Source: an uncultured Gemmatimonadales bacterium
GTDB lineage: Bacteria > Gemmatimonadota > Gemmatimonadetes > Gemmatimonadales > GWC2-71-9
DNA length: 64,000 nucleotides
NCBI GenBank assembly: GCA_963695555.1
Contig: CAVOGR010000007.1
Location: forward strand, 32,001 to 96,000
Direction: 5' to 3'
Position 1 is the first letter of the stretch. Every line of letters begins with the position of its first letter. The notes below the pieces were generated by a model. It was not told the DNA's origin, did not search any database, and worked only from the letters and a program-made list of their open reading frames with translations. Below are positions 758 to 60,991 of the stretch, piece by piece. The position numbers and the translations under genes were made by a program.

Positions 758-1159
758 TCAGGGTAGGACGGCGGTCGCTTCGATCTCGATTTGTGCCCCT
801 TCATCGACGAGGCGTTTCACTTCGACGAGGGCCATCGCAGGATAGTGACGCCCCATGAGTCGGCGGTACACGACACCGATCGCTTTTCGGCCGTCACGGT
901 AGGCGTCGAGGTCCGTCACGTAGATCGTGAAACGACCGATGTCTTCGGGCGTGCCGCCGGCTGCGCGCACGACCGTCAGGACGTTCGTCAACGCCTGTTC
1001 CCATTGTTCGACGAACGACGAGGCTCGGATTTGCCCGTCTCGAACGACGGCAGTTTGGCCGGCAACAAAGAGTACCCGGCCGCCGGCCGGCCCAACGAGG
1101 GCGTGATTCCATCCTCGCGGGACGCCGAGCGATTCGGGGTTGATGATATCGAAGGTCAT
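758..1159 (-). CDS. RidA/YjgF/YER057c family protein
   Basis: LFVAGQ...YPAMALVEVKRLV...IEIEATA, 133 aa; 4-bp overlap with the upstream SDR. Confidence 0.9.
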   Translation of the reverse strand: MTFDIINPESLGVPRGWNHALVGPAGGRVLFVAGQTAVVRDGQIRASSFVEQWEQALTNVLTVVRAAGGTPEDIGRFTIYVTDLDAYRDGRKAIGVVYRRLMGRHYPAMALVEVKRLVDEGAQIEIEATAVLP

Positions 1160-1932: not shown

Positions 1933-1941
1933 GATGGTACC

Positions 1942-2712: not shown

Positions 2713-2771
2713 TGTGAAGCTCGGAACGCGTGTGAGGACTGCCGGCATCGACTCCAATCGGTGAGCCACTC

Positions 2772-4295: not shown

Positions 4296-4299
4296 GAAC

Positions 4300-9590: not shown

Positions 9591-10573
9591 TACGCCCGAT
9601 CCTGCTGGGCCTAGCACTCTGCCTGCCGCTCGCCACGCTGCCCGCGCAGACGCACCTCGTGGTCGTCACAGGACTCGGCGGTGAAGCACGGTATCGCGAC
9701 ACCTTCCACGCGTGGGCGCTGGAATTGATCGACGCCACCACCGGCCGCTACGGGGTGCCGGTCGACAACGTCATCTACCTCGGTGAGTCAGCCAATCGGG
9801 ACACGACGCGCATCGCGGCCCGCTCCACCATGGAGAACATTGAGCGAGCCCTCACGGACCTGGCGGGACGCGCCGAACCCAACGCGCAGGTGATTGTGGT
9901 ACTCATTGGCCATGGGAGTGCGCGCGACGGCGAGCCCAAACTCAATTTGCCCGGCCCCGACCTGACGGCCGTGCAGCTCGCGCGGCTGCTCGACGCATTC
10001 CCCACGCAGACGATCGTCGTAGCCAATTTCGCAAGCGCCAGCGGAGGCTTCATCCCCGCCCTGTCCGGGCCGCGACGGGTCATCATTACCGCCACCAAGA
10101 GCGGAACGGAACGAAATCAGGCCCGCTTCGGCAAGTTCTTTGTAGCCGCGTTTGCCGGGGGGCAAGCGGATGTCGATCACGATGGAATCGTCTCCGTGCT
10201 CGAAGCATTCACCTACGCACGACGAGAAGTGGCTCGTACCTACAGCCAAGAAGGCACCCTGCTCACGGAGCATGCCCTGCTCGACGATAACGGGGACAAG
10301 ACCGGGAGCTACGAGCCCGATCCTACGACGACCGACGGTGCACTCGCCCGGACCATCACCCTCGGATACAGCGCAGCGGGTCCCATCGCGCGCGATCCGG
10401 AGCTCGCGGCCCTGTACGAGGAGAAGCGGATCCTCGAACAAGCCATCGCCGCATTGCAGCGGGACAAGAATCGGCTGGAACCCGCAGTCTACGAGCAACG
10501 ACTGGAGGCGATCCTGCTCGACCTCGCCGCAACCAACAAGACCATCCGCGACCGGGAGGACGGCACACCATGA
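9587..10573 (+). CDS. Exported caspase/peptidase C13-like fold protein with C-terminal coiled coil
   Basis: Signal peptide, VLIGHG motif, ASASG where clan CD enzymes have the catalytic Cys, DVDHDG loop; ATG overlaps the previous stop (ATGA). Confidence 0.65.
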   Translation: MIRPILLGLALCLPLATLPAQTHLVVVTGLGGEARYRDTFHAWALELIDATTGRYGVPVDNVIYLGESANRDTTRIAARSTMENIERALTDLAGRAEPNAQVIVVLIGHGSARDGEPKLNLPGPDLTAVQLARLLDAFPTQTIVVANFASASGGFIPALSGPRRVIITATKSGTERNQARFGKFFVAAFAGGQADVDHDGIVSVLEAFTYARREVARTYSQEGTLLTEHALLDDNGDKTGSYEPDPTTTDGALARTITLGYSAAGPIARDPELAALYEEKRILEQAIAALQRDKNRLEPAVYEQRLEAILLDLAATNKTIRDREDGTP

Positions 10574-13221
10574 TCCGACGGGCCCGACCGATCACGGGAG
10601 TGGTGCTCGGACTCGCCGTGTCTGCCTGCGGGTCGCGCGGTCACGCGCAGGCAACGCTGGCGCAGGCCGATTCGCTGGCCAGAGCGGGGGAATATCGGAC
10701 GGCCATCGAGGCCTACCGCGGACTGAGCCGCCGCGAGCCATCCTGGCAGACGACTCGCATGCTCGCCAGCAGCCTGCAGGCAATCGGTGACTACGTCGAC
10801 GCGGAACAGACGCTCCGCTCGGCCATCGAAGATTCGGTACCTGACGCCCACCAGCTTTGGAATACGCTCGGCGAGGTACTCACTCGCCAGGGACGGGACG
10901 TGGAGGCTCGCGAGGTGTTCGAGCGCGGCATCGCGAGCGGCGCGGCCGATCGGCTCTCGGCCGAGCTCAACCTTGCAGTCGCGAGCTTCGACCGCGGCGA
11001 ACTCGACGCGGCGACGCGGCAATTCGACCGGTTCATCGACATGTACAATCGCGGAGCGGCACGGACGGCAGCCGACTTCAGGGCCGTTGCGCGAGCCGTC
11101 CGCTACCTCGGACGCACCGACCCACAACTCTACAAGGACGCGCTCCGGGCATACGACGAGGCCGTCGCCTTGGATCCGCAGGATCTCGACATCCAAGTCG
11201 AGATCGGCAACCTGTTTCTCGAGAAGTACCGGAGCGACGAAGCCACGACGACCTTCACTGCCATCCTCGAGCACAATCCCAATCACGCCGACGCTATTCT
11301 CGGCCTGGCTCGCGTGAAACACTTCGACGGTTCGAGCGAGGCCTTCGCCCTGGTGCAGCGGAGCCTCGGGATCAACCCCAATCTGGTTGGTGCCCGCGTA
11401 TTTCTCGCTCGTCTCTACATCGACCTGGAGGATTTCGCCTCGGCGGCGTCCGAGGCCGAACGGGCGCTGGCCGTCAATCCGCGAGCGGTCGACGCCTTGG
11501 CAATGTCGGCGGCAGCTCGTTACCTGGCCAATGACTCCACCGGCTTCGCTCAGGCTCGTGACAGTGCCCTCGGAATCGATCCGCGTAACACGGCATTCTT
11601 CAGCACCCTGGCCGAGCTCGCGGCCCGGAACCGCCTCTACCAGCAGGCGGTCGATTTTGCGGGACAAGCGGTGCAACTGGACTCGCTGGCCTGGCGGGGA
11701 TACGCCCTCCGAGGCCTGAACCGCCTTCGGACCGGGGCCATCGCCGAGGGCCGGCATGATTTGGAAACGGGCTTTGCCGGAGACCCGTATGACCTGTGGA
11801 CCAAGAACACGCTCGACCTGCTCGATGTCGTCGGGCAATACGTCGAAATCCGCTCACCCCGGTTTCAGCTGGTGCTCGATCCCAAGGAGGCGGAAGTGGT
11901 TCGGCTCTATCTCGAGCCGCTAGCCGAGGAAGCGTATGACCGCCTCGCGGCGCGCTACGGGGTCAGGCCGCCCGCGCCGATCCGGGTGGAGGTGTATCCC
12001 CGGCACGCCGACTTCTCGGTCCGGACGATCGGACTTGCCGGGCTCGGCGCTTTGGGGGTGAGCTTCGGTCCCGTCATCGCGATGGATGCGCCCTCGGCGC
12101 GCCCGCCCGGCGACTTTCACTGGGGTGCGACGTTCTGGCATGAGTTGGCCCACACGTTTCACATGACGGCCAGCAGGCATCGCGTCCCGCGATGGTTCAC
12201 CGAGGGCTTGGCGGTGCTGGAGGAGCGTCGAGCGCGCCCCGGGTGGGGCGACGACGTGACGCCCGGGTTTCTCCTCGCGTTTCGCGAGGGACAGCTGGCG
12301 CCGGTGAGCAACCTCAATCAGGGCTTCATGCGGCCCGCGTACCCGGAACAGGTGATCTACTCCTACTACCAGTCGTCGCTGGTATTCGAGTTGATCGAAC
12401 AGGAATACGGCTTCGAGGCCATCCGGCACATGCTCGCGGCCTATCGCGACGGTGCACAAACCCCGGATGTGTTTCGCACCGTACTCCGTGTCGAACCCGC
12501 CACCTTCGATCAGACGTTCACGTCTTTTCTCGAAACGCGTTTTGCAGCGGCGCTTGCCGCCCTGCGTCACGGAACCGGTGACCACAGAGCCCCAGGGCGG
12601 GACGTGATCGGCCGCCGGGCTTCCGCGGACACGACCGACTTCGCCGTACAGTTGGGGCTCGGAAAGGCACTCTTCTCGGAAGGTCGGCTGGAGGAGGCGC
12701 TGGTCCCACTCCGCCGGGCCAAGGCGCTCTTTCCGGAGTATCTCGGCAGCGACAGCCCTCGGTGGCTACTTGGCCAGGTCTACCAGGCTCGAGGGCAGCT
12801 CGATCAAGCCGCGGCGGAACTCACCGACCTCACCGCTCGTAATGCCAAGCACTACCCTGCGCTCCAGGCACTGGCAGAGATCGAAGCGGAGCGTGGCAAT
12901 CCGGACCGTGCCGCCCGTGCCCTCGAATCGCTCATGTTCGTATACCCGTACGACATCGCACAGCACCGGAACCTAGCCGGCTATGCGCGTGCCCTAGGTG
13001 AGGAGGCTACCGAATTGCGCGAGCGGCGCGCCGTGCTGGCTCTCGACCCGGTGGATCGGCCGCAAGCGCTCTACGAACTGGCGCGGGCCTACCGGGATGC
13101 GGGCGATCGGAGAGCAGCGCGCCGCACGGTGCTCGAGGCCTTGGAGCAGGCACCCAACTACCAGGATGCACTCGACTTGTTGCTCGAGTTGCAGGCCACG
13201 CGCGGCCAAGGCACGGAGTAA
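10570..13221 (+). CDS. TPR-repeat lipoprotein with central zinc metallopeptidase (MA-like) domain
   Basis: Lipobox SAC, many TPR-like helices, HELAH...VPRWFTEGLA gluzincin signature. Confidence 0.85.
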   Translation: MIRRARPITGVVLGLAVSACGSRGHAQATLAQADSLARAGEYRTAIEAYRGLSRREPSWQTTRMLASSLQAIGDYVDAEQTLRSAIEDSVPDAHQLWNTLGEVLTRQGRDVEAREVFERGIASGAADRLSAELNLAVASFDRGELDAATRQFDRFIDMYNRGAARTAADFRAVARAVRYLGRTDPQLYKDALRAYDEAVALDPQDLDIQVEIGNLFLEKYRSDEATTTFTAILEHNPNHADAILGLARVKHFDGSSEAFALVQRSLGINPNLVGARVFLARLYIDLEDFASAASEAERALAVNPRAVDALAMSAAARYLANDSTGFAQARDSALGIDPRNTAFFSTLAELAARNRLYQQAVDFAGQAVQLDSLAWRGYALRGLNRLRTGAIAEGRHDLETGFAGDPYDLWTKNTLDLLDVVGQYVEIRSPRFQLVLDPKEAEVVRLYLEPLAEEAYDRLAARYGVRPPAPIRVEVYPRHADFSVRTIGLAGLGALGVSFGPVIAMDAPSARPPGDFHWGATFWHELAHTFHMTASRHRVPRWFTEGLAVLEERRARPGWGDDVTPGFLLAFREGQLAPVSNLNQGFMRPAYPEQVIYSYYQSSLVFELIEQEYGFEAIRHMLAAYRDGAQTPDVFRTVLRVEPATFDQTFTSFLETRFAAALAALRHGTGDHRAPGRDVIGRRASADTTDFAVQLGLGKALFSEGRLEEALVPLRRAKALFPEYLGSDSPRWLLGQVYQARGQLDQAAAELTDLTARNAKHYPALQALAEIEAERGNPDRAARALESLMFVYPYDIAQHRNLAGYARALGEEATELRERRAVLALDPVDRPQALYELARAYRDAGDRRAARRTVLEALEQAPNYQDALDLLLELQATRGQGTE

Positions 13222-15962: not shown

Positions 15963-18073
15963 TGGGCCTGTCGTTTCTGGCTCCCGCCTTCCTTGCCGCT
16001 TTAGCCGCCTTGGCGGTTCCGGTCCTGGTGCATTTGACGCACCGGAGCCGGAAGGAGGTCGTCCGGTTTCCCTCGCTGCGCTTTCTCGATCAGGTACCCT
16101 ACCGAGCAGTCCGCCGGCAGCGCATTCGGCACTGGGCACTGTTCGCCGCGCGGTGCCTGGCGCTGGTACTCCTGGCCCTCGCGTTCGCTCGCCCGCTGCT
16201 GGACCGCCTGCGCGGCATGGGCTCGGCAGATGCGGGAAGCACCGAGCACGTGATCCTGCTCGATCGGTCGTACAGCATGGGCTACGGCAACCATTGGCAA
16301 CGGGCGCTCGATGCCGCGCGCGATGTTCTGGATGCGCTGGGCCCCGGCGATAAGGTCTCCCTCGTGACCTTTGCCGACGAGGCGAGCCTCGTCGCCGAGG
16401 CATCCTTCGATCCGGCCGCGCTCCGCACCACCCTCGGCGGTCTCACGCCCGGCCCTGGGCGCACCCGATTCGCACCGGCACTCCAGGTCGCGCGGCAGCT
16501 GCTCGACCGATCCGAGCTGGCGGACCGTGAGGTCGTGATGATCAGCGACTTCCAGAACCAAGGGTGGGAACGCTCAGCCGATGTCGGCCTGCCGCGCAGC
16601 ACCCGCTTTCGCACAGTCGATTTGTCGGTGGCAGAACCGGTCAACGTGTTGGTATCGGACGCACAAATTCAACGCGGTGAACGGGGCGGGCGCGAGGAGG
16701 TCTATGTCTTGGCCCGAGTGGTCAATCAGGGCGAGGCCCCCGTGAGAGGTCTCGCGGTAGAACTCGAGGTAGATGCCGCAGCAGTGGATCGCAAACTGGT
16801 CGACGTCGGGGCACGAGGCGCCGCGACGGTTCGATTCGGGCCGATTGCCCAGCCGTCGGCCACCGCCCGCGCGACGGTTAGGACAGCGCGCGATTCGCTG
16901 ACGCTGGACAATGCCTTTCACTTCGTGCTCCCTCCTCGCCCGACTGTGTCGATCCTGATCGTGGAGGCGGCCACCGGCGGCCGCGGCACCCTCTACCTCC
17001 GACAGGCGCTCCGTATCAGCCACGAACCGGCCTTTCTCGTGGAGTCGCGCCGGGTCGACCGGCTCCGGCCCGAGGATTTGGCCGACCGAGCGGTCGTAGT
17101 GCTCAACGATTGCCCGTTCCCGGGGGGCCAGGCCGGACGGGACCTGATCGAATTCGTGCGCGACGGCGGAGGGCTGTTGACCGTCCTCGGCAGTAAGAGC
17201 ACCCTGAGCGGCTGGCCGGCCGACGCGCGCGCACTTCTCCCCGGCACGTGGGGAGCGCCGATCGACCAGCTCCCGATGCGCGGCGTCGCACTCGGGAGCA
17301 TCGACTACGCGCATCCGGTATTTGCCGCCTTCAGCAGCCCGGAGCATGGAGACCTGTCCTTGCCCCGGTTCTATCGCTATCGGCCGCTCCAGATGGACTC
17401 CACGGCCACCGTGGTGGCGCGGTTTTCCGACGGCGGCGTGGCGCTCGCGGAGCGCACCATCGGCCAGGGAAAGTCGCTCATGTGGACCTCGGCGCTCGAC
17501 AACGCATGGAGCGATTTGCCGATCCAACCGGTCTATCTGCCCGTCGTGCACGAGATGGCCCGCCACCTCGCCGGCCGCCGGACGGACCCTCCCTTCTATG
17601 CCTCGGGTCAGATTCTCGATCTGTCCCACTACGTCGACCGTCTCACCGGCACGCGGGGAGCAACGCTAGACGAAGTCGTTGTGGAAACCCCGGGGGGAAC
17701 GAGCGTCTCCAAGACCACGGCCGGTGAGAACCGGTTTCTGCCCTTGGATGAGGCGGGTTTCTACGCACTGCGGCCAGCCGGGAGGCGCATCGCCGTGTAT
17801 CCGGTGGCGGTCAATGCCGATCGCACGGAATCAGACCTCAGCCCGCTCGATCCGGAAGAGTTCAGCGCGGCGGTGACCGCGGATACCGGGCCTGGAGAGC
17901 TCGAACCCAGTCAGGCGGCCAGCCTGACGCCGGCGGAACGCGAGCGGCGTCAATCGCTCTGGTGGTACTTATTGGCCGCGGGGCTGCTGGTGCTCGGAGC
18001 TGAATCGATCGCCGCAAACCGATTACCCTTCGTGGCGAGACCCGAAAGCGCCCAGGAGGCATCTGGTGGCTAG
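15962..18073 (+). CDS. BatA N-terminal/VWA domain membrane protein
   Basis: FLAPAFL...PVLVHL...FPSLRFL...LAFARP; MIDAS DRSYSM; ISD; C-terminal TM LWWYLL. Confidence 0.9.
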   Translation: MGLSFLAPAFLAALAALAVPVLVHLTHRSRKEVVRFPSLRFLDQVPYRAVRRQRIRHWALFAARCLALVLLALAFARPLLDRLRGMGSADAGSTEHVILLDRSYSMGYGNHWQRALDAARDVLDALGPGDKVSLVTFADEASLVAEASFDPAALRTTLGGLTPGPGRTRFAPALQVARQLLDRSELADREVVMISDFQNQGWERSADVGLPRSTRFRTVDLSVAEPVNVLVSDAQIQRGERGGREEVYVLARVVNQGEAPVRGLAVELEVDAAAVDRKLVDVGARGAATVRFGPIAQPSATARATVRTARDSLTLDNAFHFVLPPRPTVSILIVEAATGGRGTLYLRQALRISHEPAFLVESRRVDRLRPEDLADRAVVVLNDCPFPGGQAGRDLIEFVRDGGGLLTVLGSKSTLSGWPADARALLPGTWGAPIDQLPMRGVALGSIDYAHPVFAAFSSPEHGDLSLPRFYRYRPLQMDSTATVVARFSDGGVALAERTIGQGKSLMWTSALDNAWSDLPIQPVYLPVVHEMARHLAGRRTDPPFYASGQILDLSHYVDRLTGTRGATLDEVVVETPGGTSVSKTTAGENRFLPLDEAGFYALRPAGRRIAVYPVAVNADRTESDLSPLDPEEFSAAVTADTGPGELEPSQAASLTPAERERRQSLWWYLLAAGLLVLGAESIAANRLPFVARPESAQEASGG

Positions 18074-21000
18074 CTTCTCCGAGCACAAGCACATCTCCGC
18101 CCAGGAGGAACTCCTCCAGGTGGTCCGCACGGTGCGGAACCGTTGGCGCCTCAGAGTGTTTCTTCGCGGCGCAGCCATCCTGTTGCTTGTCAGCGTGGGC
18201 ATGTTGCTCCTGGCAACCTACGGCATCGATCGGTTTCGGTTCGATGACACCGCCGTTCTGATGTTTCGGATATTGCTGTACGGGGTGATTGGTGGTGTGG
18301 CCATCTGGTACGTCATTAAGCCCCAGCTCAGAGACGTGTCGGATGAGCGAGTCGCACTGTACCTCGAGGAGCACGAGCCTTCGCTCGACGGCCAGGTCCT
18401 GAGCGCGGTCGAGTTCGGCCGACCGCACGAACCCGGTGCTCCGCAGACCGGCTCCACCGTCTTGATCGAACAGGTGATCGAGTCCGCCGTCGACCGCTGC
18501 CGTGAGATCGATGATGGCAAGCGAGTCGACCGACCCGCGCTCCGTCACTCGACCGGGGTCGTGGCGGGGTCCACGGCCTTTGGTGCGCTGCTCCTCTTGC
18601 TCGGACCCGCCTTCCTCCACAATGGCGCCCCCCTCCTCCTCATGCCCTGGCGGGCACTCGGCATCAACCCGTACCGCATCGTGGTCGAGCCCGGGAGCGT
18701 GACCGTGCCGCGGGGATCGGACCTCACCGTGTCGGCTCAGTTGAGGAATTTCGACGCCGACGAGGTCGACCTCGTGGTCAAGTCCGCCGAGGCAACACAA
18801 TGGGATCGCTGGCCGATGACCCTCGAAGATTCCGCGACGGGGTATTCGGTCATGGTGTTCGACCTGTCGGAGCCACGGGAGTATTTCGTGGAGGCCAGCG
18901 GCGTCCGGTCACCGGTGTTCCGCGTCGACGTGGTCGATTTGCCGTACGTGAAGGACATCGCCGTGGAGTACCACTTCCCCGGATATACCGGACTACCGCC
19001 ACAAACCCAGGAGGGCTCCGGCGATATCATCGCCCTGAAGGGCACCCGCGCCATGCTTCACATCACGTCGACGCTCGAGGTGAACGCCGGGGTGCTCATC
19101 GTCGAACCGGGCGACACTGTCCCGTTGACGATCGAAGCGGATGGCACGCTCACCGGAGACGTAACGGTTCGGGAGGAAGGAACGTACCGGGTCTTGCTCG
19201 AGAGCGCGCAGGGCGACCTGGTGGTCGCTTCGCCTGACTATCTCATCGACCCGTTGTCCGACCAGCCACCCAGCGTGTCGTTCGCCAAGCCAGGCCGGGA
19301 CATCTCCGTGTCGAGCCTCGAAGAGGTCTCGACCGAGGTGCACGCGCAGGACGACTACGGCGTCGCAACGGTGGACCTCGTCTATGCCGTGAACGGCGGC
19401 GAGGAGCAGACGCTCTCGCTCTGGTCGGGGAAGCGATCGCTGAAGGAAGTCTCGGCGGGTCATACGTTCTTCCTGGAGGAGTTGGAGCTCGAGCCCGGCG
19501 ATTTCATCTCCTATTACGCAAAAGCATCGGACGGACGTCGTGGTGCCTCGAGGCAGGAGGCCGTCACCGACATCTACTTCATGGAGATTCGGCCCTTCGA
19601 CCAGAGCTTCCGGCAGGCCGATCAGCAGCCCGGCCAGGGCATGAGCTCGGTCGGTGGGGAGCTGTCGGAGCGGCAACGCCAGATCATCGCCGCGACCTTC
19701 CGCATCGTGCGCGACAGCCTCCGCTACAATGACAAGGAGTTCCGGGAGCACATGTCCACCGTGACGCTGTCGCAGGGGCGGCTGCGAGAAGAGGTGACCA
19801 CCTTGGTCGAGCGGATGCGTACCCGCGGCGTCGTGGGCATGGACTCGACTTTCGCCCTCGTCGCGGAGGCGCTGCCAAAGGCCGTCGAAGAAATGGAGGC
19901 CGCCGAGGCGGAGCTGGGCCAGCGGCAGCCGAAAGCGGCCCTCCCGCCCGAGCAGCGGGCCCTGCAGCAGCTGCAGCGTGCCGAGGCCGCGTATCGCGAA
20001 GTCCAGGTCGGAATTGCCCAGGGTGGCGGTGCTCCCGGGCAGGACGGGGAAATCAGCGAGGAGCTCGCGGACCTGTTCGAACTCGAGCTCGATCGCATGC
20101 GCAACCAGTACGAGCAGGTGCAACGCGGCAACCAGCAGGCAGCGGACCAGACCATCGACGACACGTTGGAGAAGCTGAAAGAGTTGGCCCGGCGGCAGCA
20201 GCAGGAAAATGAACGGCTTCGCGCTCGAGCTCAGGCCGGTCAAACACCCCCGTCCGGCGGCAGCGGCGGTGGGCAACGGCGCCTGGCGGATGAAGTGGAG
20301 CAAGAGGCTCGCCGGCTCGAGCAGCTGGCCCGTGAGCAATCGATGCCAGACCTCGCGGAAACTGCCCGAGGGTTGCGTGAGGCCGCCGAGGCCATGCGAC
20401 GGGCCGCCTCCGCACGGGGTTCCAACGGAGCGGCACAGGGATCGTCCGCCCTCGAGGAGCTCAGAGAGGCGCGGCGTCGGCTCGAGCGGACCCGTGAGGG
20501 GCGCCTTACCAGGGACATCGAGGATGCCCGCCAACGTGCCGAACGGCTGCTGGAGCAGGAGCGGCGGATGATGCAGGAACTCGAGCGGCTCGACCCCACC
20601 AATCCTGGTGCAGGCGAGCGACTCCGGCAAATGGTCGACCGCAAGGGCGCGATGGCAGCGGAGCTGGGCGACCTGGAGGAACAACTCGACCAGGCGGCAC
20701 GCGATGCACGTCGCGACCAAACCGAAGCGTCACGCCGCCTCGGTGAAGCCGCGGGATCGATCCGCGACAACCAGCTCAAGGAGAAGCTGTTGTACTCTCG
20801 CGGCGTCATCCAGGGTCGATCCCAGGACTACGCTCGCAACTTCGAAGAACAAATCCGAGCGGACTTGGAAGACCTCCGCGACAAGATCGACGAGGCGGCC
20901 GGCGCCCTCGGCCCCTCACGCGAGCGGAACATGGAGGAGGCCCTCGACCGTGCCCGCGCCGCCGTGACCGGGCTCAAGTCCCTGGGTGAACGCATGGAAC

Positions 21001-51925: not shown

Positions 51926-52531
51926 CTAACTGCGATTGGGCCTGAACATGCTCCAGGTATGGATCTCGCCGACGTGGGCTTCCGCGGTCACGTGGTATCC
52001 CACCCGCTCGTAATACGGCACGTTTGACGGATCCTCGGTGCTGAGCGTGACACCGGTCGAGACCGGGTCCGCCTCGGACATGGCTTGGATATGTTCCAGC
52101 AAGATCCGGCCGTAGCCGCTGCCTTGATGGCCTGGCGCCACCCCGATCATGCCGAGGAAGTAGTGCGGCTCATCGGGCTCGTGACCGGTGCTTTGGCGCT
52201 CGTACCTGGCCATACGCTCGAACGCCTCGGGGCCGATAATGGTGGCAACCCGACGGTGCTTCCGTGTGAGCTCGGGCGGTGCGAGCAGATCACGAGGCTC
52301 CGACACCAGCGCCGCTGCTACGAGATCCTCCCCTTGCCGGATGCCCAGCACCGGCCAGCCTCGGGTCAACCGGGCATCGCAGTAGAAGCCTATGAGCTCG
52401 CGGAGCCGCGCGCCGTACTCGTCGCCGGCGTCCGCCAGGGCGAAGCGCATGACAGGGTAGTCATGGAAGGCGGCGGCGAGCACGTCGATCACGTGCTCCC
52501 GATCGGCCTCGGTCAAGCGCTCAACAGTCAC
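51926..52531 (-). CDS. GNAT family N-acetyltransferase
   Basis: FLGMIGVAPGHQGSGYG...NVPYYERVGY. Confidence 0.9.
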   Translation of the reverse strand: MTVERLTEADREHVIDVLAAAFHDYPVMRFALADAGDEYGARLRELIGFYCDARLTRGWPVLGIRQGEDLVAAALVSEPRDLLAPPELTRKHRRVATIIGPEAFERMARYERQSTGHEPDEPHYFLGMIGVAPGHQGSGYGRILLEHIQAMSEADPVSTGVTLSTEDPSNVPYYERVGYHVTAEAHVGEIHTWSMFRPNRS

Positions 52532-52647
52532 ATTATTCCCCGCCGCAGGATGTACAGTGTTTGGGGGAAGAGACTCCTCGCTCTCCCCCCGAATTCCACG
52601 AACGGCACGCGTGTGTCAACTCGTGCCCTGCGCTCCGAATGTTGCCC

Positions 52648-52830
52648 TCAGCTCTCGGACGGCTCGATCTTCACCACGCATTCGCCCTTCACATGCGCGA
52701 CGAACACGTCGTACTTGATCACTCCGAGTTTGGTCCATTTGGGAGCTGCCGCTCGGTTGTCGGCGCAAATCTCGTTGGCCTCCCCGCATTCCCAGGTCCC
52801 GCTTGGGCAGAGCTTGCATGTCTTGGCCAT
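52648..52830 (-). CDS. Small Cys-rich hypothetical protein (60 aa)
   Basis: AAAGGGG RBS-like sequence before the ATG; five Cys including CKLC; fills the gap downstream of the kinase on the same strand. Confidence 0.55.
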   Translation of the reverse strand: MAKTCKLCPSGTWECGEANEICADNRAAAPKWTKLGVIKYDVFVAHVKGECVVKIEPSES

Positions 52831-52895
52831 GGTTGTTCCCCTTTAGTTGAGGTTGGTGGGACTATTGGAGTCAGCACTTTGCAGCGACACTCGAC

Positions 52896-55800
52896 TTAAC
52901 CGGGTTTGAGACGCCGAAGGTCGCGCCTGGCCTCGTCCACGAGCGGTTTCGTGAGTGAGTCTGCATTGGTCCACGCACTGATGAAGTGCTCGTAAGACTG
53001 GACGGCACGCTGGGTGTCTCGATTCGCTTCGTACGCTTGTGCCCGCATGAGATAGGAGAGGCTACGTAAGCCCCAAGCGTAGTCGGGACCATCCACGCGA
53101 AGCGGCAGGCTGTCGAGTCGCGCGAACAACTCGGCCGCATGGCCCTGATCGCCGATGCGGGTTGCCACAACACCAAGGATCAATGCCCTCGTCGCATCGC
53201 TTACACCCGGGACCTTCGTCCCCACGGCTTGGCGAAGCAGTGCGTGAGCGGTGACCGAGTCCCGTTTGCTCATGACGAGCGCGCGCCACAATGGGGTATC
53301 GAGTCCGAGACCGTCATCCCACGCCGCCAAGGCCGAATCATCCCATGCCAGCGCTGGTGCGATGTCAAATGTCGCGTTGCGGCGCAACAACCGGATTTGC
53401 CGCTCCGAATACTTGGGAGGTGACCAGACACGGCGAAGGGCATCCAACTCATGTCTGAGCGGTAGTCCGCCCACTCCGGTGGCACCCAATACGCGTATTC
53501 GTTCAATGATGACGTCGGCACCGCCATAGGGTATGAGAGAATCCGCAAGGCTATCCGGCATAAAGCTCTGCTTCGTGCTGTGCGACACGAGCGTCAGCGT
53601 ACGCAAGGGCTGCCCCAGGGCCAAGAAGACGTCGACGGCGAGCTGATCTGGAGGTTCAGTGCCATATCGCTCGAGCGCCTCTTCCGTCAGCCTGGCCGCT
53701 TCGGCGGGATCGCCTGCCCCTAGGTAAAGGCTCCCCAGCCGGAGGAGATCGATTGGCAGCGTGTCTCCCTTGAGCGCGAGAGCTTGAGCAGCATTCTCCA
53801 GGGCCAGTTGTGCCAGGCTGTCGATGGACTCCGGAGCGGCCAATTTCAAGCGCGCCCTCCGCGCGAGCATCGCAGCGGCGATCTCTTCCCGGGGTTGGGC
53901 CAGCCCCGGGGCGAAGTCGGCCCATCGGCGGATGGCCTGGACCGATTGGTCGAACAGCCGAGTGGCGCCTGCTTCAGCCAAGGACGGATCGAGCGAATCG
54001 AACGCCGCCTTGCTCACCCATTCGATCGAGTCCAGCGCAACCGGACAAAAGGCGCGGAGGCGATGTGGCGTCTTGTCCCCCCAAGGCGCAATGAACTCGT
54101 CACGGGGCAGTTCGAAGCCGCCGCAGACTCCGCGATCGATCGGTTCCGTCACGGCCTTGTAGATCTCAAACAGATGCCCGTAGCCAAGGTCGAATGTCGG
54201 CTGGAGTCGCACCGCCTCGGAGAATGCATGAATCGCCACGTTGAGGTTGCTACGAGGCGCTAGCCTCCCCGGTGACTTTTCTTCCAGCCATGGATCACGA
54301 TACTCCACGCTGCCAAGCATCAGCCAGGCGTAGACATCGGTGGAATCTGATTTCAGTATCGACTGGTAGCGTTGGCGAGCGGTCTCGTAATCGCCCTGCT
54401 GGAAGGCATAGAATGCAGCGATGTGCATGCTGTCCCGAATCGGCAGGCCGGCCGAATGTCGCAGGGCAAATGCACTCAGGCTCACAATCTCGGGGCCAAC
54501 GCTCTCGAGCCGCATGTCGCTTGGAGCGGCCTGCCAGTACAGGGTCTGGGCCAGGTTGTTCATCGCAGTCGCAAACGATGTGTCCAGCACGATGGCCTGG
54601 CGGAAGCTCCGCTCGGCGTCGCCGAGTCGCCAACTCGCTAGATATCGCTGCCCCTCGGTCAAGCGGGCGAGTGCCGCGGGCACGGCGGTCAGCCGACGCA
54701 ACTCGCCCGGGTCGGCGGTAACCTGATCGATGCCCAGAATCCCGTACACCACCGGCGCTACCAGCGTCGACATCTCGTTGGCGGCACCCGAGGCTTGTAT
54801 CGAGGGGCCTACGCTCTTCTGGCTTCGTGCATCAAACAGAGTGGCTTCAACGAACGCCGTGTCGCCCCGCAGGTTGAGGGTCACCGCGGCCAGGGCCTGG
54901 GCGCCCACGGTCCTCGCCACGGAGATCCCGTCCTCGATCAGCTCCAGCGTCGGGCCTGGGAGTCCCAGATCAAAGAGCGGCCCACTCAACGAGACGCTGG
55001 GAATGGCCCGGATGGATTCCCATTTGTTCAATTCCCGGGTGATGTCGTCCGCCAGATCACTCGCCATTGCTCGCTCACGCGCGGTCGAGGTGGAAGTGCT
55101 GAACGGCATCACGACCACTGACTCGGGACGGCCATCCACCCATGCCGTGGCGCGGGAAGCCCCGAGCGTCTTCCCTCCGATCACCGCCGCGGCAAGGATG
55201 ATCAACAGCCCTCCCACCGCAATCACGGGGTGGTCCCTCATCGGGCGTACCATCAGCTCCCAAGGCTTGGCCCGGCGTCGCTCGACGCGGTCCTGGATGG
55301 CACCCGACATCCCACCCACCGGCACGCCGTACTCGGGAGTGGTCAACGTGGTGAGCGCGGCGCCGAATTCGTCGGCTGTGCGATACCGATCGGCCGGCAC
55401 CTTGGCCAGTGCCTTGAATACTGCCTGCTCCAAGGGCTCCGAGATGGTTAGCCGCACCGTCCTGAGGCTCGGGACGGGATCCACGGCGTGCCGCGCGAGT
55501 ACGGCCTGTGACGTGGGGCCGGTGAAGGGCGGCTCGCCGACCAACGCCTCATACAGTACGCAGCCCAAGGCGTAGATATCGCTGCGTGCGTCGATCTCAC
55601 TCCTCCCGGTCGCCCGCTCCGGACTCATGTAGGTTGGGGTGCCCAAGGCGAGACCCGTCTGGGTCAGCTTCTCCCCTCCGGCCTCGGTCACGGCCCGAGC
55701 AATCCCAAAGTCGGCAACCACCGCCAGCTCACCCGTCAAGAGGATGTTCTCCGGCTTGATGTCGCGGTGCACGACACCGAGGCCGTGTGCGTGGTCCAAT

Positions 55801-56174
55801 GCCCGGGCGACTTGCTGGACGATCCGGACCGCCTCTCCGATGGGAAGCTGGTTCTCCCGATCCAGCCGTTGGCGGAGCGTTTCACCCTCGACATAGGGCA
55901 TCACATAGAACAGAAATCCGTCGGCCTCACCGGAGTCGATCAGCGGCAGGATGTGCGGGTGATTGAGGCTTGCGGTGAGTTTGATCTCACGCAGGAACCG
56001 CTCAGTGCCCAACGCAGCGGCTAATTCGGGGTGCATGACCTTGACCGCCACCTCGCGATCGTGCTTCACGTCGCGAGCCAGGTACACGGTGGCCATACCG
56101 CCCGATCCGATCTCCCGTTCGATGGGGTAGCGGTCGGCGAGCGCTGATTTCAGGCGGTTGAGGTCATCGAGCAC
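52896..56174 (-). CDS. Hanks-type Ser/Thr protein kinase with TM helix and TPR-like C-terminal region
   Basis: GSGGMATVY, VAVK, HRDIKPEN, DFG, GTPTYMSPE, DIYALG; TM VIAVGGLLIILAAAVIG; SVVVMPF domain. Confidence 0.95.
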   Translation of the reverse strand: MLDDLNRLKSALADRYPIEREIGSGGMATVYLARDVKHDREVAVKVMHPELAAALGTERFLREIKLTASLNHPHILPLIDSGEADGFLFYVMPYVEGETLRQRLDRENQLPIGEAVRIVQQVARALDHAHGLGVVHRDIKPENILLTGELAVVADFGIARAVTEAGGEKLTQTGLALGTPTYMSPERATGRSEIDARSDIYALGCVLYEALVGEPPFTGPTSQAVLARHAVDPVPSLRTVRLTISEPLEQAVFKALAKVPADRYRTADEFGAALTTLTTPEYGVPVGGMSGAIQDRVERRRAKPWELMVRPMRDHPVIAVGGLLIILAAAVIGGKTLGASRATAWVDGRPESVVVMPFSTSTSTARERAMASDLADDITRELNKWESIRAIPSVSLSGPLFDLGLPGPTLELIEDGISVARTVGAQALAAVTLNLRGDTAFVEATLFDARSQKSVGPSIQASGAANEMSTLVAPVVYGILGIDQVTADPGELRRLTAVPAALARLTEGQRYLASWRLGDAERSFRQAIVLDTSFATAMNNLAQTLYWQAAPSDMRLESVGPEIVSLSAFALRHSAGLPIRDSMHIAAFYAFQQGDYETARQRYQSILKSDSTDVYAWLMLGSVEYRDPWLEEKSPGRLAPRSNLNVAIHAFSEAVRLQPTFDLGYGHLFEIYKAVTEPIDRGVCGGFELPRDEFIAPWGDKTPHRLRAFCPVALDSIEWVSKAAFDSLDPSLAEAGATRLFDQSVQAIRRWADFAPGLAQPREEIAAAMLARRARLKLAAPESIDSLAQLALENAAQALALKGDTLPIDLLRLGSLYLGAGDPAEAARLTEEALERYGTEPPDQLAVDVFLALGQPLRTLTLVSHSTKQSFMPDSLADSLIPYGGADVIIERIRVLGATGVGGLPLRHELDALRRVWSPPKYSERQIRLLRRNATFDIAPALAWDDSALAAWDDGLGLDTPLWRALVMSKRDSVTAHALLRQAVGTKVPGVSDATRALILGVVATRIGDQGHAAELFARLDSLPLRVDGPDYAWGLRSLSYLMRAQAYEANRDTQRAVQSYEHFISAWTNADSLTKPLVDEARRDLRRLKPG

Positions 56175-56474
56175 AACGGTTCTCCCAGGCTGGCCCTAGG
56201 ATAGGCCGTGGCAGCGGGAATCGCCAGAGCGTCGGGCCAAAAATACGGCACTGGGCCCTAAGCATCGCTGGTGAATGGTGGGTCGTAAGTCTCAGGGCAT
56301 GAGACAGGAGCCCGATGACCTGAGCTAGCTACTCTTGCCGTAAGCGCTCCTCGCAGGGCTCCAACAGCAAGAGACTAGTGACGAACGACTCACGCCACGC
56401 CATCTTTCTCTGAGCGCACTATGAACGGAGTGGCCTACTATATAGGATAGGCTCCAGTGAGAGGAGGCGTGGTC

Positions 56475-56999
56475 ATGCCGCAATTCAGCGTCAATCCCAA
56501 CCGATTCGATCCCTACAAGAACTTCAAGTTCCGGGTCAAGTGGGAAGGCAAGTACGTGGCCGGCGTGAGCAAGATCAGCGCGCTGGTACGTACCACCGAG
56601 GTGGTGAAGCATCGTGAGGGTGGCGACCCGAGCACCAGCCGGAAGTCGCCGGGGCGGACGGAATACGAGCCGGTGACCCTCGAGCGTGGGGTGACCCATG
56701 ACCTCGAGTTCGAGAGATGGGCCAACAAGGTGTGGAACTTTGGGTCGGGACTGGGGACCGAGGTCTCGCTCAAGGACTTCCGGAAGGATGTGATCCTCGA
56801 ACTCTACAACGAGGCTGGGCAGCTGGTACTAGCATACAAGCTGTTCCGCTGCTGGGTCTCGGAGTTCCAGGCGCTGCCCGAATTGAATGCCAATGACGGT
56901 GCCGTCGCGATCCAGAAGCTCACGCTCCAGAACGAGGGGTGGGAGCGCGACTACGACGTCACAGAGCCCGAGGAGCCGTCCTTCACGGAGCCCAGCTAG
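56475..56999 (+). CDS. Contractile injection system / phage T4 gp19-like tail tube protein
   Basis: GAGGAGG RBS; RFDPYKNFKFRV...HREGG...RKSPGRTEYEPVTLERG...RKDVILELYNEAG...LTLQNEGW. Confidence 0.92.
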   Translation: MPQFSVNPNRFDPYKNFKFRVKWEGKYVAGVSKISALVRTTEVVKHREGGDPSTSRKSPGRTEYEPVTLERGVTHDLEFERWANKVWNFGSGLGTEVSLKDFRKDVILELYNEAGQLVLAYKLFRCWVSEFQALPELNANDGAVAIQKLTLQNEGWERDYDVTEPEEPSFTEPS

Positions 57000-57010
57000 G
57001 AGGATTCGGC

Positions 57011-57622
57011 ATGCCTGGTTCACGATCGCCGAAGGTGCTGAAGGGGGCCCTCGTGCGGCTGGACGATCAGGGGGCGGGGGCGGGGGCGCCGGCCCAGGTC
57101 GTGGTCTTTCAGTACAACCCCGAGACGCTTCACCGAAGACTCGAGGAACGACCGAGCGGGCCGCCACAGGAAGTCATCACCTGCTCGCTCGCGTTCGACG
57201 CGACCGACGCCTTGGAATTCCCGGACGAGAACCCGCTCGTGGTGGAGCACGGGATCTATCCGATGCTAGCGGCGCTCGAGCTGCTCCTGCACCCGCGCGA
57301 AGCGCGGGGCGGGGGGTCCAGCTGGTGGCCGTTCTGGCCGTTCGGTTCGGGGTCGGAGGTAGAGCGCGAGCCCGTGCTCATTTTCCTCTGGGGCGACCAG
57401 CGCGCCGTCCCCGTTCGGCTCACCCGGCTCGACATCACGGAGGAGCAGCACGATCCGCAACTGCATCCGATCCGGGCTAACGTCAGGCTTAGGATGCGAG
57501 TGGTCACCGACCAGGATGTTCCTGGGGGGCACCGGGGAGCCCGGCTCTGGCGAGAGCACCTGAGCCGGATGCGGACCCTGGCGCACGGGGTCTACACGGG
57601 GGTGCCGCCCGTTCGCATCTAG
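57011..57622 (+). CDS. CIS tube-initiator-like protein (Afp7/Pvc7-like)
   Basis: AGGAGG RBS; SPKVLKGALV...VVFQYNPETLHR...LIFLWG...ITEEQHDPQLHPIRANV, a pattern typical of eCIS CIS_tube-domain proteins. Confidence 0.75.
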   Translation: MPGSRSPKVLKGALVRLDDQGAGAGAPAQVVVFQYNPETLHRRLEERPSGPPQEVITCSLAFDATDALEFPDENPLVVEHGIYPMLAALELLLHPREARGGGSSWWPFWPFGSGSEVEREPVLIFLWGDQRAVPVRLTRLDITEEQHDPQLHPIRANVRLRMRVVTDQDVPGGHRGARLWREHLSRMRTLAHGVYTGVPPVRI

Positions 57623-57704
57623 GAGTGCACAGGGGCCGATCAGCTGAGAGAGTTCGAGAGCTTGATGGAGGGCGACGTCGTTTTGTTTGCTGTCCAGCTT
57701 TGTG

Positions 57705-57735
57705 CTTCCTACTTCCTGCCTTCCTACCTTCCTGC
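57705..57735. repeat. CTTCCT(A/G)C-type short tandem repeat overlapping the sheath-fragment stop codon
   Basis: CTTCCTA CTTCCTGC CTTCCTAC CTTCCTGC. Confidence 0.7.
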
Positions 57736-58080
57736 CTCCATCGTCTTCTGCCCGATCCGGAAGATCACGAACTCGGCCGGCCTCGTGGGTGCCACTCCGA
57801 TCATCGAGATCAGCCGGCCGTTATCGATGTCATCTTGGGTCATGGTCGTCCGATCGCACGTGACGAAGAAGGCCTCCTCCGCCGTGGCCCCGGAGAGTGC
57901 GCCGGTCCGCCACACGGTGGTGAGGAAGTTTGATATCGCAGTTCGAACGGCGGTCCACGTTGTCTGCTCGTTGGGCTCGAACACCACCCACTGGGTTCCG
58001 CGGTAGATCGACTGCTCGAGGTAGATGAAGAGACGCCGGACGTTGACGTACCTCCATTCCGGGTCCGACGACATGGTGCG
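57724..58080 (-). pseudogene. Contractile tail sheath C-terminal domain only (truncated gene or stand-alone ~116 aa protein from ATG 58074)
   Basis: RTMSSDPEWRYVNVRRLFIYLEQSI...WVVFEPN...GAL...AFFVTCD...GVAPTRPAEFVIFRI; similarity stops abruptly upstream of RTM. Confidence 0.8.
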
Positions 58081-58160
58081 GGGCGGAACATTATTGAGTC
58101 GCAAGTCCCAAGTCGGAGGACTTAAGACTTGGCACCCCTCAACTTCTTCCCTTTCTCACC

Positions 58161-60312
58161 CTACACCACCAACGGCAACTCCCGGAGCCGCTTACCCGTG
58201 AGCACCGCCACCGCGTTCGCCACGGCCGGCGCGCTCGGAGGCACCGCGACCTCCCCCACCCCGCCCGGCCGCTCCATGCTCGACACGATGTGGGTCTCGA
58301 CCCGGGGCATCTCCTTCAGGCGCAGGATGACGTAGTCGTGGAAGTTCGCCTCCTGCACTCGGCCTTCCTTTAATGTGAGCTTGCTATGGAGCGCCGCGCC
58401 GAGTCCAAATGCCACGGCGGATTCCATTTGCGCGGCGATGGCCTCGGGATTGACGGCAATGCCGCAATCGACGGCGCACACTACGCGGTGCACCCGAATC
58501 TTGCCGGCCTCGATCGACACCTCGGCCACCTCGGCGACGAAGCTGCCGAACGATTCGTGCACCGCCACTCCGCGCGCCCAGCCCTTGGGCAACGGTGTTC
58601 CCCAACCGGCCTTCTCGGCCGCCAGGTTGAGCACCCCCAGGTGCCGGGGATGACCTTGAAGCAGCCGCCGACGATACGCGACCGGGTCCTGACCCGCGGT
58701 CTGCGCCAACTCGTCGATCAGTGTCTCCATCACGAACGCGGTGTGAGTATGCCCCACCGACCGCCACCAGAGGACCGGGATCGCGGTCTTGGGCGAGTGA
58801 AGTCCGACCCTGCGATTCGGAATCGACGCGAGATAGGGTGAGTCGGCGACGCCCTCGACCGAGGACGAGTCGATCCCGTTTTGCACCAATGCGCCTTCGA
58901 ATGCGGTCCCGGCTGCGATCGATTGCCCGACCGCGACGTGATCCCAAGCGGTCGGCATGCCATCGTCGCTTAGCCCGACCCGGACCCGATGCACGAAGGC
59001 CGGGCGGTAGTAGCCCCCGCGCACGTCGTCCTCGCGGGTCCATACCACCTTGACCGCTTTGCCGCTCTGCTTGGCGACGTGCACCGCTTCGACCACGAAG
59101 TCCGAGGCCGGGCTGGCACGTCGGCCGAAACCGCCACCGAGGAAGGTGGTGTGGATCGTGACCTGCTCCGGCTTGAGGCCGAGGATCTGCGCCGCCAGCG
59201 GCTGATCCGGCCCCTGGAACTGCGTACCGGTCCAGATCTCGCACTTGTCGGGACTGATGCGGACGGTGCAGTTGAGCGGTTCCATCGGCGGCGTGTGCCA
59301 GGTACGGCACCGCATATTCCGCATCGATCGTCTTCGACGCCGCGGCGAACGCCGCGGTGACGTCGCCGGCCGCGACGGCTTGCATGCCAGGGGTCTCTGC
59401 CAGGCGGCTCCACTGCTGCTGCAGCTCTGCACTGTCCAGCGTCGCGCCGGGGCCGAGATCCCACTCGATCTCGAGCGCCGAGCGGCCCTGCCGAGCCGCC
59501 CAGAAGTGGTCGGCGAGCACAGCGACACCGCTCGGCACCTGCACTACGCCACGCACGCCGGGCACGGCCTTGGCCTTGGTTGCATCAAATGACTTGACCG
59601 TGCCACCGAACACCGGCGAGCGCGCAACCAGGGCGGTGAGCAGCCCGTCGAACTGGACATCCATGCCGAACTTGGCGCGGCCGGTGATCTTCTCCGGCGT
59701 GTCGAGCCGCTTGGTCGGCTTACCGATGATCTTCCAATCCTTCGGGTCTTTGAGCGTGACGCTCGCGGGCTTCGGCAGCTGGGCGGCGGCATCGGCCAAC
59801 TCGCCGAAGGTCGCGCGATTGTCCCCGGCGATGACCGCACCGTTCTCGGTGCGGCAGGCTGATACCGGAACGCCGTAGCGCTGGGACGCGGCCTCCACAA
59901 GGAGCGTGCGGGCCATGGCTCCGGCCTCGCGATAGCGCTGGAACTCGGACCACGTGGTGGTTGATCCGCCGGTGGCCTGGATGCCGAAGGCAGTGTGCGC
60001 GTAGACCGGTGCGGCTGGCGCGTGCTCCACCTTGATCTTGCTCCAATCGGCGTCGAGCTCCTCGGCGATCAGCATCGGCAGCGTAGTCCAGATGCCCTGG
60101 CCCATCTCCGAGTGCGCCAAGAGCACGGTCACGGTGTCGTCACTACCGATCCGAAGGAACGCATTCGGCACAAAAGGTTCAGTGCCCGGTATGGCCTCCG
60201 CCTGAACAAAACGTCGAGCGCCGGGCACGGCGAAGGCAATCACCAGCCCGCCTGAGACGGCGGCGCCGGTCTTCAGGAAATCGCGGCGAGTGGGGTGTGG
60301 CTTAGCGGTCAC
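58161..60312 (-). CDS. Xanthine dehydrogenase family molybdopterin-binding subunit (IorB-like, Tat signal), split by a +1 frameshift near 59290
   Basis: TRRDFLK, SEMGQG, TGGS, YLAHA then in another frame PMEPLNCT, LGGGFGRR, WWRSVG, GGVGE. Confidence 0.92.
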
Positions 60313-60375
60313 GGGTACGGCTCCTTTCAACGGCTCGATTAGCCATCACGATTCGCTAGCACGGCTCCGGCCGGT

Positions 60376-60831
60376 TCAACCCGCGGCCAATTCCGAGGCG
60401 CGACGCACCGCGGCACGGATCCGCTGATAGGTGCCGCAGCGGCAGAGGTTGCGCGCTAAAGCGTCGTCGATGTCCGCATCGCTGGGTGTGGGCTTGTCGG
60501 CGAGTAATGCCGCGGCCGTCATGATCTGCCCCGACTGGCAGTAGCCGCACTGCACCACGTCCAGATCGGCCCAGGCCCGCTGCACCGGGTGGCTCCCGTC
60601 GGGCGACAGCCCCTCGATGGTGGTGATCTGCTTGCCCTCGACGCTGGATACCGAGGTAACGCACGAGCGACGGGGGACCCCGTCGATGTGCACCGTGCAG
60701 GCCCCACATTGCGCAATGCCGCAGCCGAATTTGGTCCCAGTCAGGCCGACCAGGTCACGGATGACCCAGAGGAGCGGCATGTTGGGAGCGGCGTCGACGT
60801 CGTGCTGCTTGCCGTTGATGGTGAGCTTCAT
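60376..60831 (-). CDS. (2Fe-2S)-binding subunit (IorA/CoxS-like)
   Basis: [32 protein letters not shown]. Confidence 0.95.
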
Positions 60832-60991
60832 GATTCCCTCGTGGTGGTGGCTCGGGAGCACAGCGGAGTCGCAGTCAGGTCCATTTCTGAAGCCCGGACG
60901 GCGCGACCGTTCCAACTCAATTTTAGCGATGTTCGAGAAATTTCAAGGTCCCGACTCGGCCTGCATTGGAAAGAAGACGGTAGCCCCGGCA

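Follow-up and report, generated by a model that had tools for sequence, protein, structure and literature searches.

A tube and initiator gene pair beside iorAB in a Gemmatimonadales bacterium: a probable remnant of an extracellular contractile injection system

The window analysed here is a 64,000-nucleotide stretch of DNA from an uncultured sediment Gemmatimonadales bacterium, taken from positions 32001-96000 of contig C7 in a 3.57-Mb assembly of 14 contigs that is 87% complete (genome G000). Three open reading frames (ORFs) at 56475-58104 of the window resemble parts of an extracellular contractile injection system (eCIS): a plus-strand tail-tube gene, a plus-strand gene for an Afp7/Cis7-like tube initiator, here called p2, and a minus-strand ORF for the C-terminal domain of a sheath protein. 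We consider it rather likely that this locus is an eCIS remnant near the iorAB genes, made up of a retained tube/initiator module and the eroded relic of a sheath gene from a foreign lineage. By the core-gene definition the locus is not an eCIS but an eCIS derivative. An earlier, sequence-only reading of the window described two intact plus-strand genes with ribosome-binding sites, converging on a minus-strand ORF for the sheath C-terminus between a kinase gene and iorAB, and all of this is confirmed. That reading left three explanations side by side, a decayed and rearranged eCIS, a satellite module serving a system encoded elsewhere and a repurposed minimal tube system, and no single one of them fits all three genes.

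Identity and origin of the tube and p2 genes

The tube gene (56475-56999, plus strand) is intact and encodes a protein of 174 aa belonging to the T4 gp19/contractile injection system (CIS) inner-tube family. It matches PF06841 (Phage_T4_gp19) over the entire profile, 1-134 of 134, with an E of 4.7e-44 and 149.9 bits against a cut-off of 28.2, and it also matches TIGR02241 (E 1.7e-42; 144.6 against a cut-off of 62.4). Its scores for the NCBIfam equivalogs CIS1_fam (49, with a cut-off of 220) and CIS5_fam (51, with a cut-off of 260) are far too low for assignment to either. The sequence GAGGAGG precedes its start at 56461-56467, and homologues are found in 8 of 61 related genomes.

The p2 gene (57011-57622, plus strand), also intact, starts 11 nt past the tube stop codon, which is overlapped by the AGGAGG of p2, and encodes a protein of 203 aa whose assignment comes from profile and fold comparisons. 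The sole Pfam match is to PF19266 (CIS_tube), at 21.7 bits below the gathering cut-off of 27 and covering only 102-148 of the 158 profile positions. Of the three profiles that the sequence-only reading had proposed for the locus, Phage_T4_gp19 and Phage_sheath_1C were recovered and CIS_tube only below its cut-off; NCBIfam yielded no additional assignment for either p2 or the sheath fragment. Homologues of p2 are nevertheless plentiful, with 643 at E <= 0.001 in a large protein collection, most of them 190-226 aa long, and many of those at 36-57% identity carry PF19266 in precomputed annotation. In an alignment of 27 rows p2 is full-length and keeps 19 of the 19 invariant columns. The profile of this alignment weakly matches 9rce_H (a 'peptidoglycan-binding protein', E 0.002), 7b5h_AK (All3321) and 6rao_G (Afp7).

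An AlphaFold model of p2 from the alignment (pLDDT 80.8, pTM 0.75) predicts a tube-like beta-barrel that matches the initiator-ring chains of solved CIS baseplates. All of its top nine Foldseek matches are to baseplate or initiator chains of CISs or phages (E 1.9e-6 to 2.7e-5, TM 0.37-0.49), from PVC, AlgoCIS, cyanophage A-1(L), AFP (6rao_G), Anabaena (7b5h_AK) and the Streptomyces CIS, and because of this 'Afp7-like' is a fair name for the protein. The defining feature of Afp7 and Pvc7 is a C-terminal LysM domain, which binds peptidoglycan. Although the predicted fold of p2 finds its best matches among CIS baseplate chains, the protein differs from the LysM-bearing initiator rings of the Afp7/Pvc7/Cis7 type in its low identity to them (14-19%), in the modest TM values and sub-threshold PF19266 score already given, and in its C-terminus, where a single helix (175-195) closes the model in place of a LysM domain; no LysM family matched p2 at E <= 0.01. 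Together with the sheath profile discussed below, these profile and fold matches uphold the gp19-like, Afp7-like and sheath C-terminal-only assignments of the sequence-only reading. A prediction of the tube and p2 proteins in complex scored 0.01, a value for which controls were not folded and which carries no weight in either direction.

Sequence comparison indicates that both plus-strand genes derive from a canonical eCIS of the Afp/PVC/AlgoCIS type. Textbook eCIS loci are present in the sister-genus genomes G019 and G185, where the order is sheath, tube, T4_baseplate-like, Pvc16_N, AAA ATPase and eCIS_core or protease cargo genes, followed by the p2 orthologue, a 375-412-aa gene, a Phage_base_V spike, DUF4280 (PAAR-like), gp25 (its profile match was seen in G019) and large baseplate proteins including Baseplate_J. 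In a third genome, G528, the region examined, which comprises p2 and the baseplate module, has the same cargo-p2-baseplate arrangement. The window tube shares 72-82% identity with canonical eCIS tubes (76% with that of G019 and 82% with that of G185). The gene with which the baseplate module of these loci begins is the orthologue of window p2, whose fold matches chains in the Afp7/Pvc7 position and which is 37-43% identical to the p2 proteins of G019, G185 and G528 by tblastn. The differences are equally plain. Canonical loci have roughly 15-18 genes, with tube and p2 about 10-11 kb apart in G019 and G185, whereas the window has two intact genes lying next to each other, and our searches of G000 found no sheath N-terminus, spike, PAAR, gp25, baseplate J, terminator, intact ATPase or eCIS_core effector.

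To place this adjacency among p2 loci in general, 88 loci were compared, consisting of 80 metagenome contigs, seven other genome loci and the window. A tube gene lies 12-67 nt upstream of p2 in eight of them (G000, G002 and the contigs L050-L054 and L112) and 5.3-9.5 kb upstream in nine; 46 have no tube in the available upstream sequence of at least 900 bp, and in 25 the upstream sequence is too short to judge. Members of the p2 family were found in 8 of 401 genomes sampled from the phylum and in 7 of 401 from the family, both counts including G000, and among these genomes p2 is adjacent to a tube gene only in G000 and its sister genome G002. In a contig-level genome search the only relatives of p2 were two distant matches, in Novosphingobium and Altererythrobacter metagenome-assembled genomes (MAGs).

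In a quick maximum-likelihood tree of p2 (87 rows, L053 having been dropped as too short; a more careful search is unfinished), six of the seven adjacent rows (G000, G002, L050, L051, L052 and L054) form one clade, with an SH-aLRT of 100 and a stem of 1.24. A quick maximum-likelihood tree of the tube (22 rows) likewise unites six of its seven adjacent rows (G000, G002, L051, L053, L052 and L054; SH-aLRT 96, stem 0.11), and this clade is nested among canonical tubes. As there is one adjacent clade in both trees, tube and p2 share one history, and the sequences indicate that their adjacency arose once. Since the two became neighbours the tube has barely changed and p2 has changed greatly. It is rather likely that tube and p2 form a two-gene operon taken from a canonical eCIS like those of the sister genera, that a single ancestral event brought them side by side, and that the pair has since been passed on together and maintained by purifying selection in genomes that have yielded no other CIS parts. 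The long p2 stem followed by constraint, in the company of a tube that hardly changed, suggests that p2 was remodelled after the loss of its baseplate partners and then constrained again.

Conservation of the pair in rearranged surroundings

Around the locus, G000 and G002 are collinear by blastn in three blocks only, 52004-56238, 56460-57619 and 58097-60987 of the window, which correspond to 862-5100, 10379-11539 and 16221-19127 of the G002 contig L011. The middle block is the pair itself, with 93.6% nucleotide identity between the two genomes. The left synteny break (56239-56459) is 221 bp in G000 against 5.3 kb in G002, where it holds three genes without a family match and a LuxR-type response regulator gene, and the right break (57620-58096) is 477 bp in G000, including the sheath relic, against 4.7 kb in G002 with metallophosphoesterase-like, CAAX-protease, epimerase and S26-peptidase genes. 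The genes of these G002 blocks have no orthologue in G000 (best tblastn <= 49% identity), and tblastn gave nothing at all there for four of them, the metallophosphoesterase-like gene and the three without a family match. The three unnamed genes (L011 5285-9194) are co-oriented, encode 444, 716 and 126 aa and lie between the kinase and the response regulator gene; none has a Pfam or PADLOC match, and the two larger ones also have no NCBIfam match. PADLOC gave no match for the tube, p2, the sheath fragment or four G002-specific neighbours.

Across five arrangements of the flanks the pair is the only constant. The order is kinase, pair, sheath relic and iorB in G000; kinase, 5.3 kb, pair, 4.7 kb and iorB in G002; response regulator, pair, sheath relic and iorB in L051; a GNAT gene and the pair, without the kinase, in L053; and the pair followed by a long sheath in L050. 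The chromosomal spot beside iorAB is structurally unstable. In more distant pairs a non-CIS gene follows p2, convergent and DoxX-like in L052 and flavodoxin-like in L112, which comes from a low-GC organism.

What travels with the pair includes about 100 nt 5' of the tube. This leader (56375-56474, plus strand) contains the motif CCATCTTTC at 56400-56408 as well as the GAGGAGG ribosome-binding site; its roughly 100 nt can be aligned with the upstream region of L053, and CCATCTTTC is also found upstream of the tube in G002 and L051 despite the different upstream neighbours there. A promoter and terminator scan found no sigma-70-type consensus promoter, and its single terminator-like match, inside p2, is within the count expected by chance. 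A repeat search of 55900-58400 revealed no flanking direct or inverted repeats suggestive of an insertion sequence or att site. The sole repeat in that interval is an 8-nt-period motif at 57712-57735, directly 3' of the stop of the sheath relic; this CTTCCTNC repeat is purine-rich on the minus strand, and is conserved in L050 and in part in L051.

Substitution patterns indicate that tube and p2 have been retained under purifying selection. The ratio of nonsynonymous to synonymous divergence (dN/dS), calculated by the Nei-Gojobori method for pairs that are not independent of each other, is 0.044-0.073 for the tube, at a dS of 0.20-0.30, in all six pairs among G000, G002, L051 and L053. For p2 it is 0.21-0.25 (dS 0.22-0.24) in the three pairs among G000, L050 and L051, and 0.21 (dS 0.11) over the first 145 codons between G000 and G002. 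Between these last two genomes the kinase gives 0.18 (dS 0.29), iorA 0.17 (dS 0.23) and iorB 0.09 (dS 0.41); the tube is more constrained than such housekeeping neighbours and p2 about equally so. The reading frames agree with this picture. Among the eight adjacent loci the tube is intact in seven and cut by a contig end in the other, while p2 is intact in six, cut by a contig end in one and frameshifted in one, that of G002. A weak hint of transcription is offered by an estuary RNA library: one of its contigs, 587 nt long and with 29 differences, spans the tube/p2 junction (56505-57082), and another, 605 nt long and with 14 differences, reaches from the 3' end of iorB into the sheath relic (57742-58346).

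These observations bear directly on the possibility of plain recent decay, by which all three ORFs would be non-functional leftovers, lost independently in each strain and not yet marked by disabling mutations. The sheath gene is visibly whittled, G002 has its p2 frameshift, a truncated AAA domain of eCIS type lies on another contig of G000, L050 may still hold a full sheath, and other relatives have solitary or truncated CIS genes, such as the 247-aa sheath of G194 and the solitary sheath and tube of G151. However, the tube is held in every pair below the dN/dS of the flanking housekeeping genes, both frames are largely intact across the adjacent loci, and only the pair stays constant while its flanks are rearranged. 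The adjacency is moreover common to a clade reaching 47-57% p2 identity, and the reduction is therefore old. We regard recent decay of all three ORFs as unlikely. The proposal of a decayed and rearranged eCIS suits the sheath piece, with its variable truncation and its absence from G002, but not the tube and p2, with their low dN/dS, single clade and five sets of flanks. The sequence-only reading had also named, as a case against itself, a full eCIS operon at this site in relatives combined with relaxed selection; full operons do exist, but in other genera and not at this site, and selection on the pair is not relaxed.

The search for a complete system and the sheath fragment

Profile searches of G000 gave no match to PF04984, PF04865, PF04965 or PF14065 (sheath body, baseplate J, gp25 and Pvc16_N) in the 87% of the genome that is represented, the positive control for Pvc16_N being supplied later by G019. 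When 24 CIS proteins of G019, G185 and G151 were compared with the whole of G000 by tblastn, they matched only the tube, p2, the sheath fragment, an AAA domain on contig C3 and non-CIS sequences (response regulators and unrelated genes). All ORFs picked from six further loci of relatives, which carry tube, sheath or p2 homologues, found the same three genes and the C3 AAA domain, again apart from non-CIS sequences. The eCIS core set, in which sheath, tube, spike, gp25, baseplate J/gp6, Pvc16 terminator and AAA ATPase are co-located, is not found in G000. G002, which is 98% complete in 10 contigs, has one tube and no Baseplate_J or Pvc16_N, and all three were found in the control genome G019. 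The machine is not detectable in either of the two genomes. The sequence-only reading had noted that baseplate, spike, ATPase and capsid genes are missing, and both Pfam and tblastn bear this out, the truncated AAA domain on C3 aside.

That AAA domain (about 66345-66890 of C3), whose identity to its counterparts in the eCIS ATPases of seven loci is 43-51%, stands alone in a minus-strand ORF of at most 284 codons at C3:66345-67196. The N-terminal part of this ORF contains hydrophobic segments, and the ORF directly follows an acyltransferase-like gene. It is probably another eCIS relic in G000.

With no partner found in G000 or G002, the suggestion of a satellite module loses much of its appeal. 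In this explanation tube and initiator would act in trans for a contractile system encoded by a plasmid that escaped binning, by the 13% of the genome missing from the assembly, or by a mobile element or phage. The MAG is only 87% complete and eCIS loci can be plasmid-borne. The tube is also nearly unchanged relative to its canonical counterparts (72-82% identity, stem 0.11), as expected if it still fits a sheath and a baseplate. The p2 protein, on the other hand, has diverged strongly from canonical p2 (stem 1.24, 36-45% identity), which would be unexpected if it docked on a standard baseplate. Searches of G000 with four Pfam families, and by tblastn with the proteins of nine loci, found no further CIS structural gene, nor was Baseplate_J or Pvc16_N found in the more complete G002 by searches to which the control genome responded. 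A role in trans for a system of this kind seems improbable to us.

The sheath ORF (minus strand) occupies 57724-58104 if it starts at a TTG codon (126 aa), or 57724-58077 if it starts at an ATG (117 aa). It matches PF17482 (Phage_sheath_1C) with an E of 3.2e-20 and aligns to residues 458-573 of the solved 574-aa sheath 9ezm_A (E 3.3e-49), so that only about the last fifth of a sheath is kept. Since no more than 57-83 nt separate it from the iorB stop codon, an N-terminal part of the sheath cannot be accommodated there. A full sheath was taken to have PF04984 and PF17482 in one protein of about 350-700 aa; the ORF lacks the PF04984 domain, which has no match anywhere in G000. The fragment is 64% identical to the sheath of G057, 70% to that of G151 and 74% to that of G194, but its identity to the sheaths adjoining the tube's closest relatives is only 44-47%, and the tubes in the G057 locus and in the G151 genome are only 30-37% identical to the window tube. 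These identities indicate that the sheath fragment comes from a CIS lineage other than that of the tube.

The length of the sheath piece varies between relatives. In L050 the frame continues for at least 293 codons up to the end of the contig, in L051 homology to the sheath begins about 137 codons before the stop, in G000 the ORF has 117-126 codons, and in G002 the sheath piece is absent and the tube is retained. A 199-aa version, P0126, appears to share a contig with P0003, a p2 protein 77-79% identical to that of the window, judging only from the equal listed length of their contigs (12,768 bp). L050 and L051 are sisters in the p2 tree (SH-aLRT 88), and the truncation in L051 is therefore independent of that in G000. 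As a sequence series these lengths form a pattern of 5' erosion, and the ORF is most likely a relic, which is probably non-functional. It is probably what is left of a sheath gene from another CIS lineage that formerly lay after iorB on the minus strand and was whittled independently in sister strains.

Single CIS genes are found in other members of the family as well. G151 (96% complete) has a solitary 526-aa sheath gene between S1/P1 nuclease and membrane protein genes (L142 7734-9314) and a solitary gp19-type tube gene between PNP oxidase and M28 peptidase genes (L154 8989-9399), and no Baseplate_J was found in this genome. In G194 a sheath relic of 247 aa is flanked on both sides by genes for Ser/Thr kinases (L143 9187-9930). 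The sheaths of these two genomes are the ones 70-74% identical to the window fragment; unlike the window they have single genes, the pairing of tube and p2 being specific to the adjacent clade. Scattered single CIS genes seem to recur in the family and, since G194 and G151 have similar debris, erosion of CISs is common in the group.

It might also be supposed that all three genes form a minimal set, in which the sheath C-terminal domain is functional, for example by binding the outer surface of the tube, and is expressed by read-through from iorB. The same internal Met opens the frame in G000 and L051 despite their different truncation points, the dN/dS of the fragment is 0.17-0.23, a p2 of 77-79% identity probably still has a sheath piece linked to it if the listed size of the P0126 and P0003 contigs is a guide, and one of the RNA-library contigs spans the 3' end of iorB and the fragment. 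Yet G002 has kept the tube without the fragment, and the fragment itself varies in length (117, about 137, 199 and at least 293 aa) and has no Shine-Dalgarno sequence before either candidate start. A fitted interface between tube and fragment is not to be expected, because the fragment is from another CIS lineage. Short sheath C-terminal 'proteins' are common in a large database (2743 matches), but there contig-edge partials, which are many, are mixed with real relics. We think a functional three-gene set quite improbable.

A chimeric assembly at the convergent junction (57622-58160), a misassembly that the sequence-only reading had allowed for, is very improbable: the window does come from a MAG, and the 1-nt iorB indel suggests some consensus errors, but the order of tube, p2 and convergent sheath is conserved on the independent metagenome contigs L050 and L051 from elsewhere (83-97% protein identity), and exact contigs of 151-166 nt from DNA runs, which may be the source sample itself, bridge both the p2/sheath gap (57617-57767) and the sheath/iorB side (57974-58139).

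Possible role of the pair and its neighbours

Several points weigh against reading the locus as a retained module beside a dead relic. A completeness of 87%, and the fact that plasmids are often lost in MAG binning, leave room for a CIS elsewhere in G000. The p2 gene of G002 has a 1-nt insertion near codon 152, which may be real decay or an assembly error, the latter because single-base indels occur in iorB of both G000 and G002. If the losses in G000, G002 and L051 were recent, low dN/dS could be partly inherited from a functional past, and they could be recent because L050 may keep a full sheath and possibly more CIS genes past its contig end. The RNA-library contigs are assembled, come from a relative and could be DNA carry-over. 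The dN/dS of the sheath fragment, and a frame that is open in two independently truncated strains, fit ill with a dead relic. L112 is unplaced in both trees, with a long branch in that of p2, so that a second origin of the adjacency is possible; the trees are quick searches, and the context of the distant pairs L052, L054 and L112 is read from contigs of 1.3-2.1 kb.

If the retained module does have a function, the p2 ring could still nucleate or cap stacked tube hexamers, giving a sheath-less and non-contractile tube or ring assembly. Such an assembly could act as a carrier or chaperone, by analogy with orphan Hcp. It is a tentative proposal, which we hold to be possible rather than probable, that tube and p2 represent a vertically inherited two-gene lineage exapted from an eCIS, whose assembly without sheath or baseplate would have a cellular role of its own in a host with no injection machine. 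The solitary tube and sheath genes of Gemmatimonadota such as G151 may be further cases of the same exaptation.

The nearest analogy is with the orphan hcp/vgrG/PAAR islands of type VI secretion systems (T6SSs), in which tube-family genes are also kept outside a complete machine locus. These islands are usually accompanied by effectors and work for a T6SS that the same cell encodes at another place, whereas no machine or effector gene was found in the genome of the window. One report counts 929 such islands that are 'often independent of full' systems (PMC13098142). No description of orphan eCIS tube/initiator pairs was found in the literature searched, which does not cover all journals. Surveys of eCISs generally count complete core-gene sets and discard fragments. 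The fragment described here behaves like a selected gene pair, its order, frames and low dN/dS being kept amid reshuffled surroundings with no machine found. If the pair does function alone, this would show that eCIS tube-family proteins can be repurposed outside injection, a fate that has been discussed for Hcp-family proteins of T6SSs, and nature would have supplied, in two small proteins, a minimal system for tube nucleation with possible uses in engineering. If there is only slow decay, the locus would instead record how an eCIS erodes in an uncultured phylum, as a clean series of stages that can be dated.

The immediate neighbours of the locus are both on the minus strand, a Pkinase/TPR protein gene (Ser/Thr kinase-TPR) on the left at 52896-56174 and genes for iorB/iorA-type molybdopterin subunits on the right at 58161-60915. 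In G000 iorB is split into overlapping ORFs, 58161-59528 and 58384-60330, by a 1-nt insertion (about 59289) relative to G002 and G004, and the iorB of G002 has a 1-nt insertion of its own near the equivalent of window position 60078. Each of these insertions may reflect either a pseudogene or an error in the assembly consensus. On the G004 contig L047 (G004:C373) a paralogous kinase gene adjoins a full iorB, and a second, internal piece of iorB lies at the contig end (1-396 against 3161-5300), which is either a duplication or an assembly artefact; G004 was considered as an 'empty' version of the site and rejected, the paralogous kinase and the duplicated iorB piece being too ambiguous. Paralogues of the Ser/Thr kinase are extremely expanded in the genus, a single kinase query giving 22-36 matches at E <= 1e-50 per genome in four genomes.

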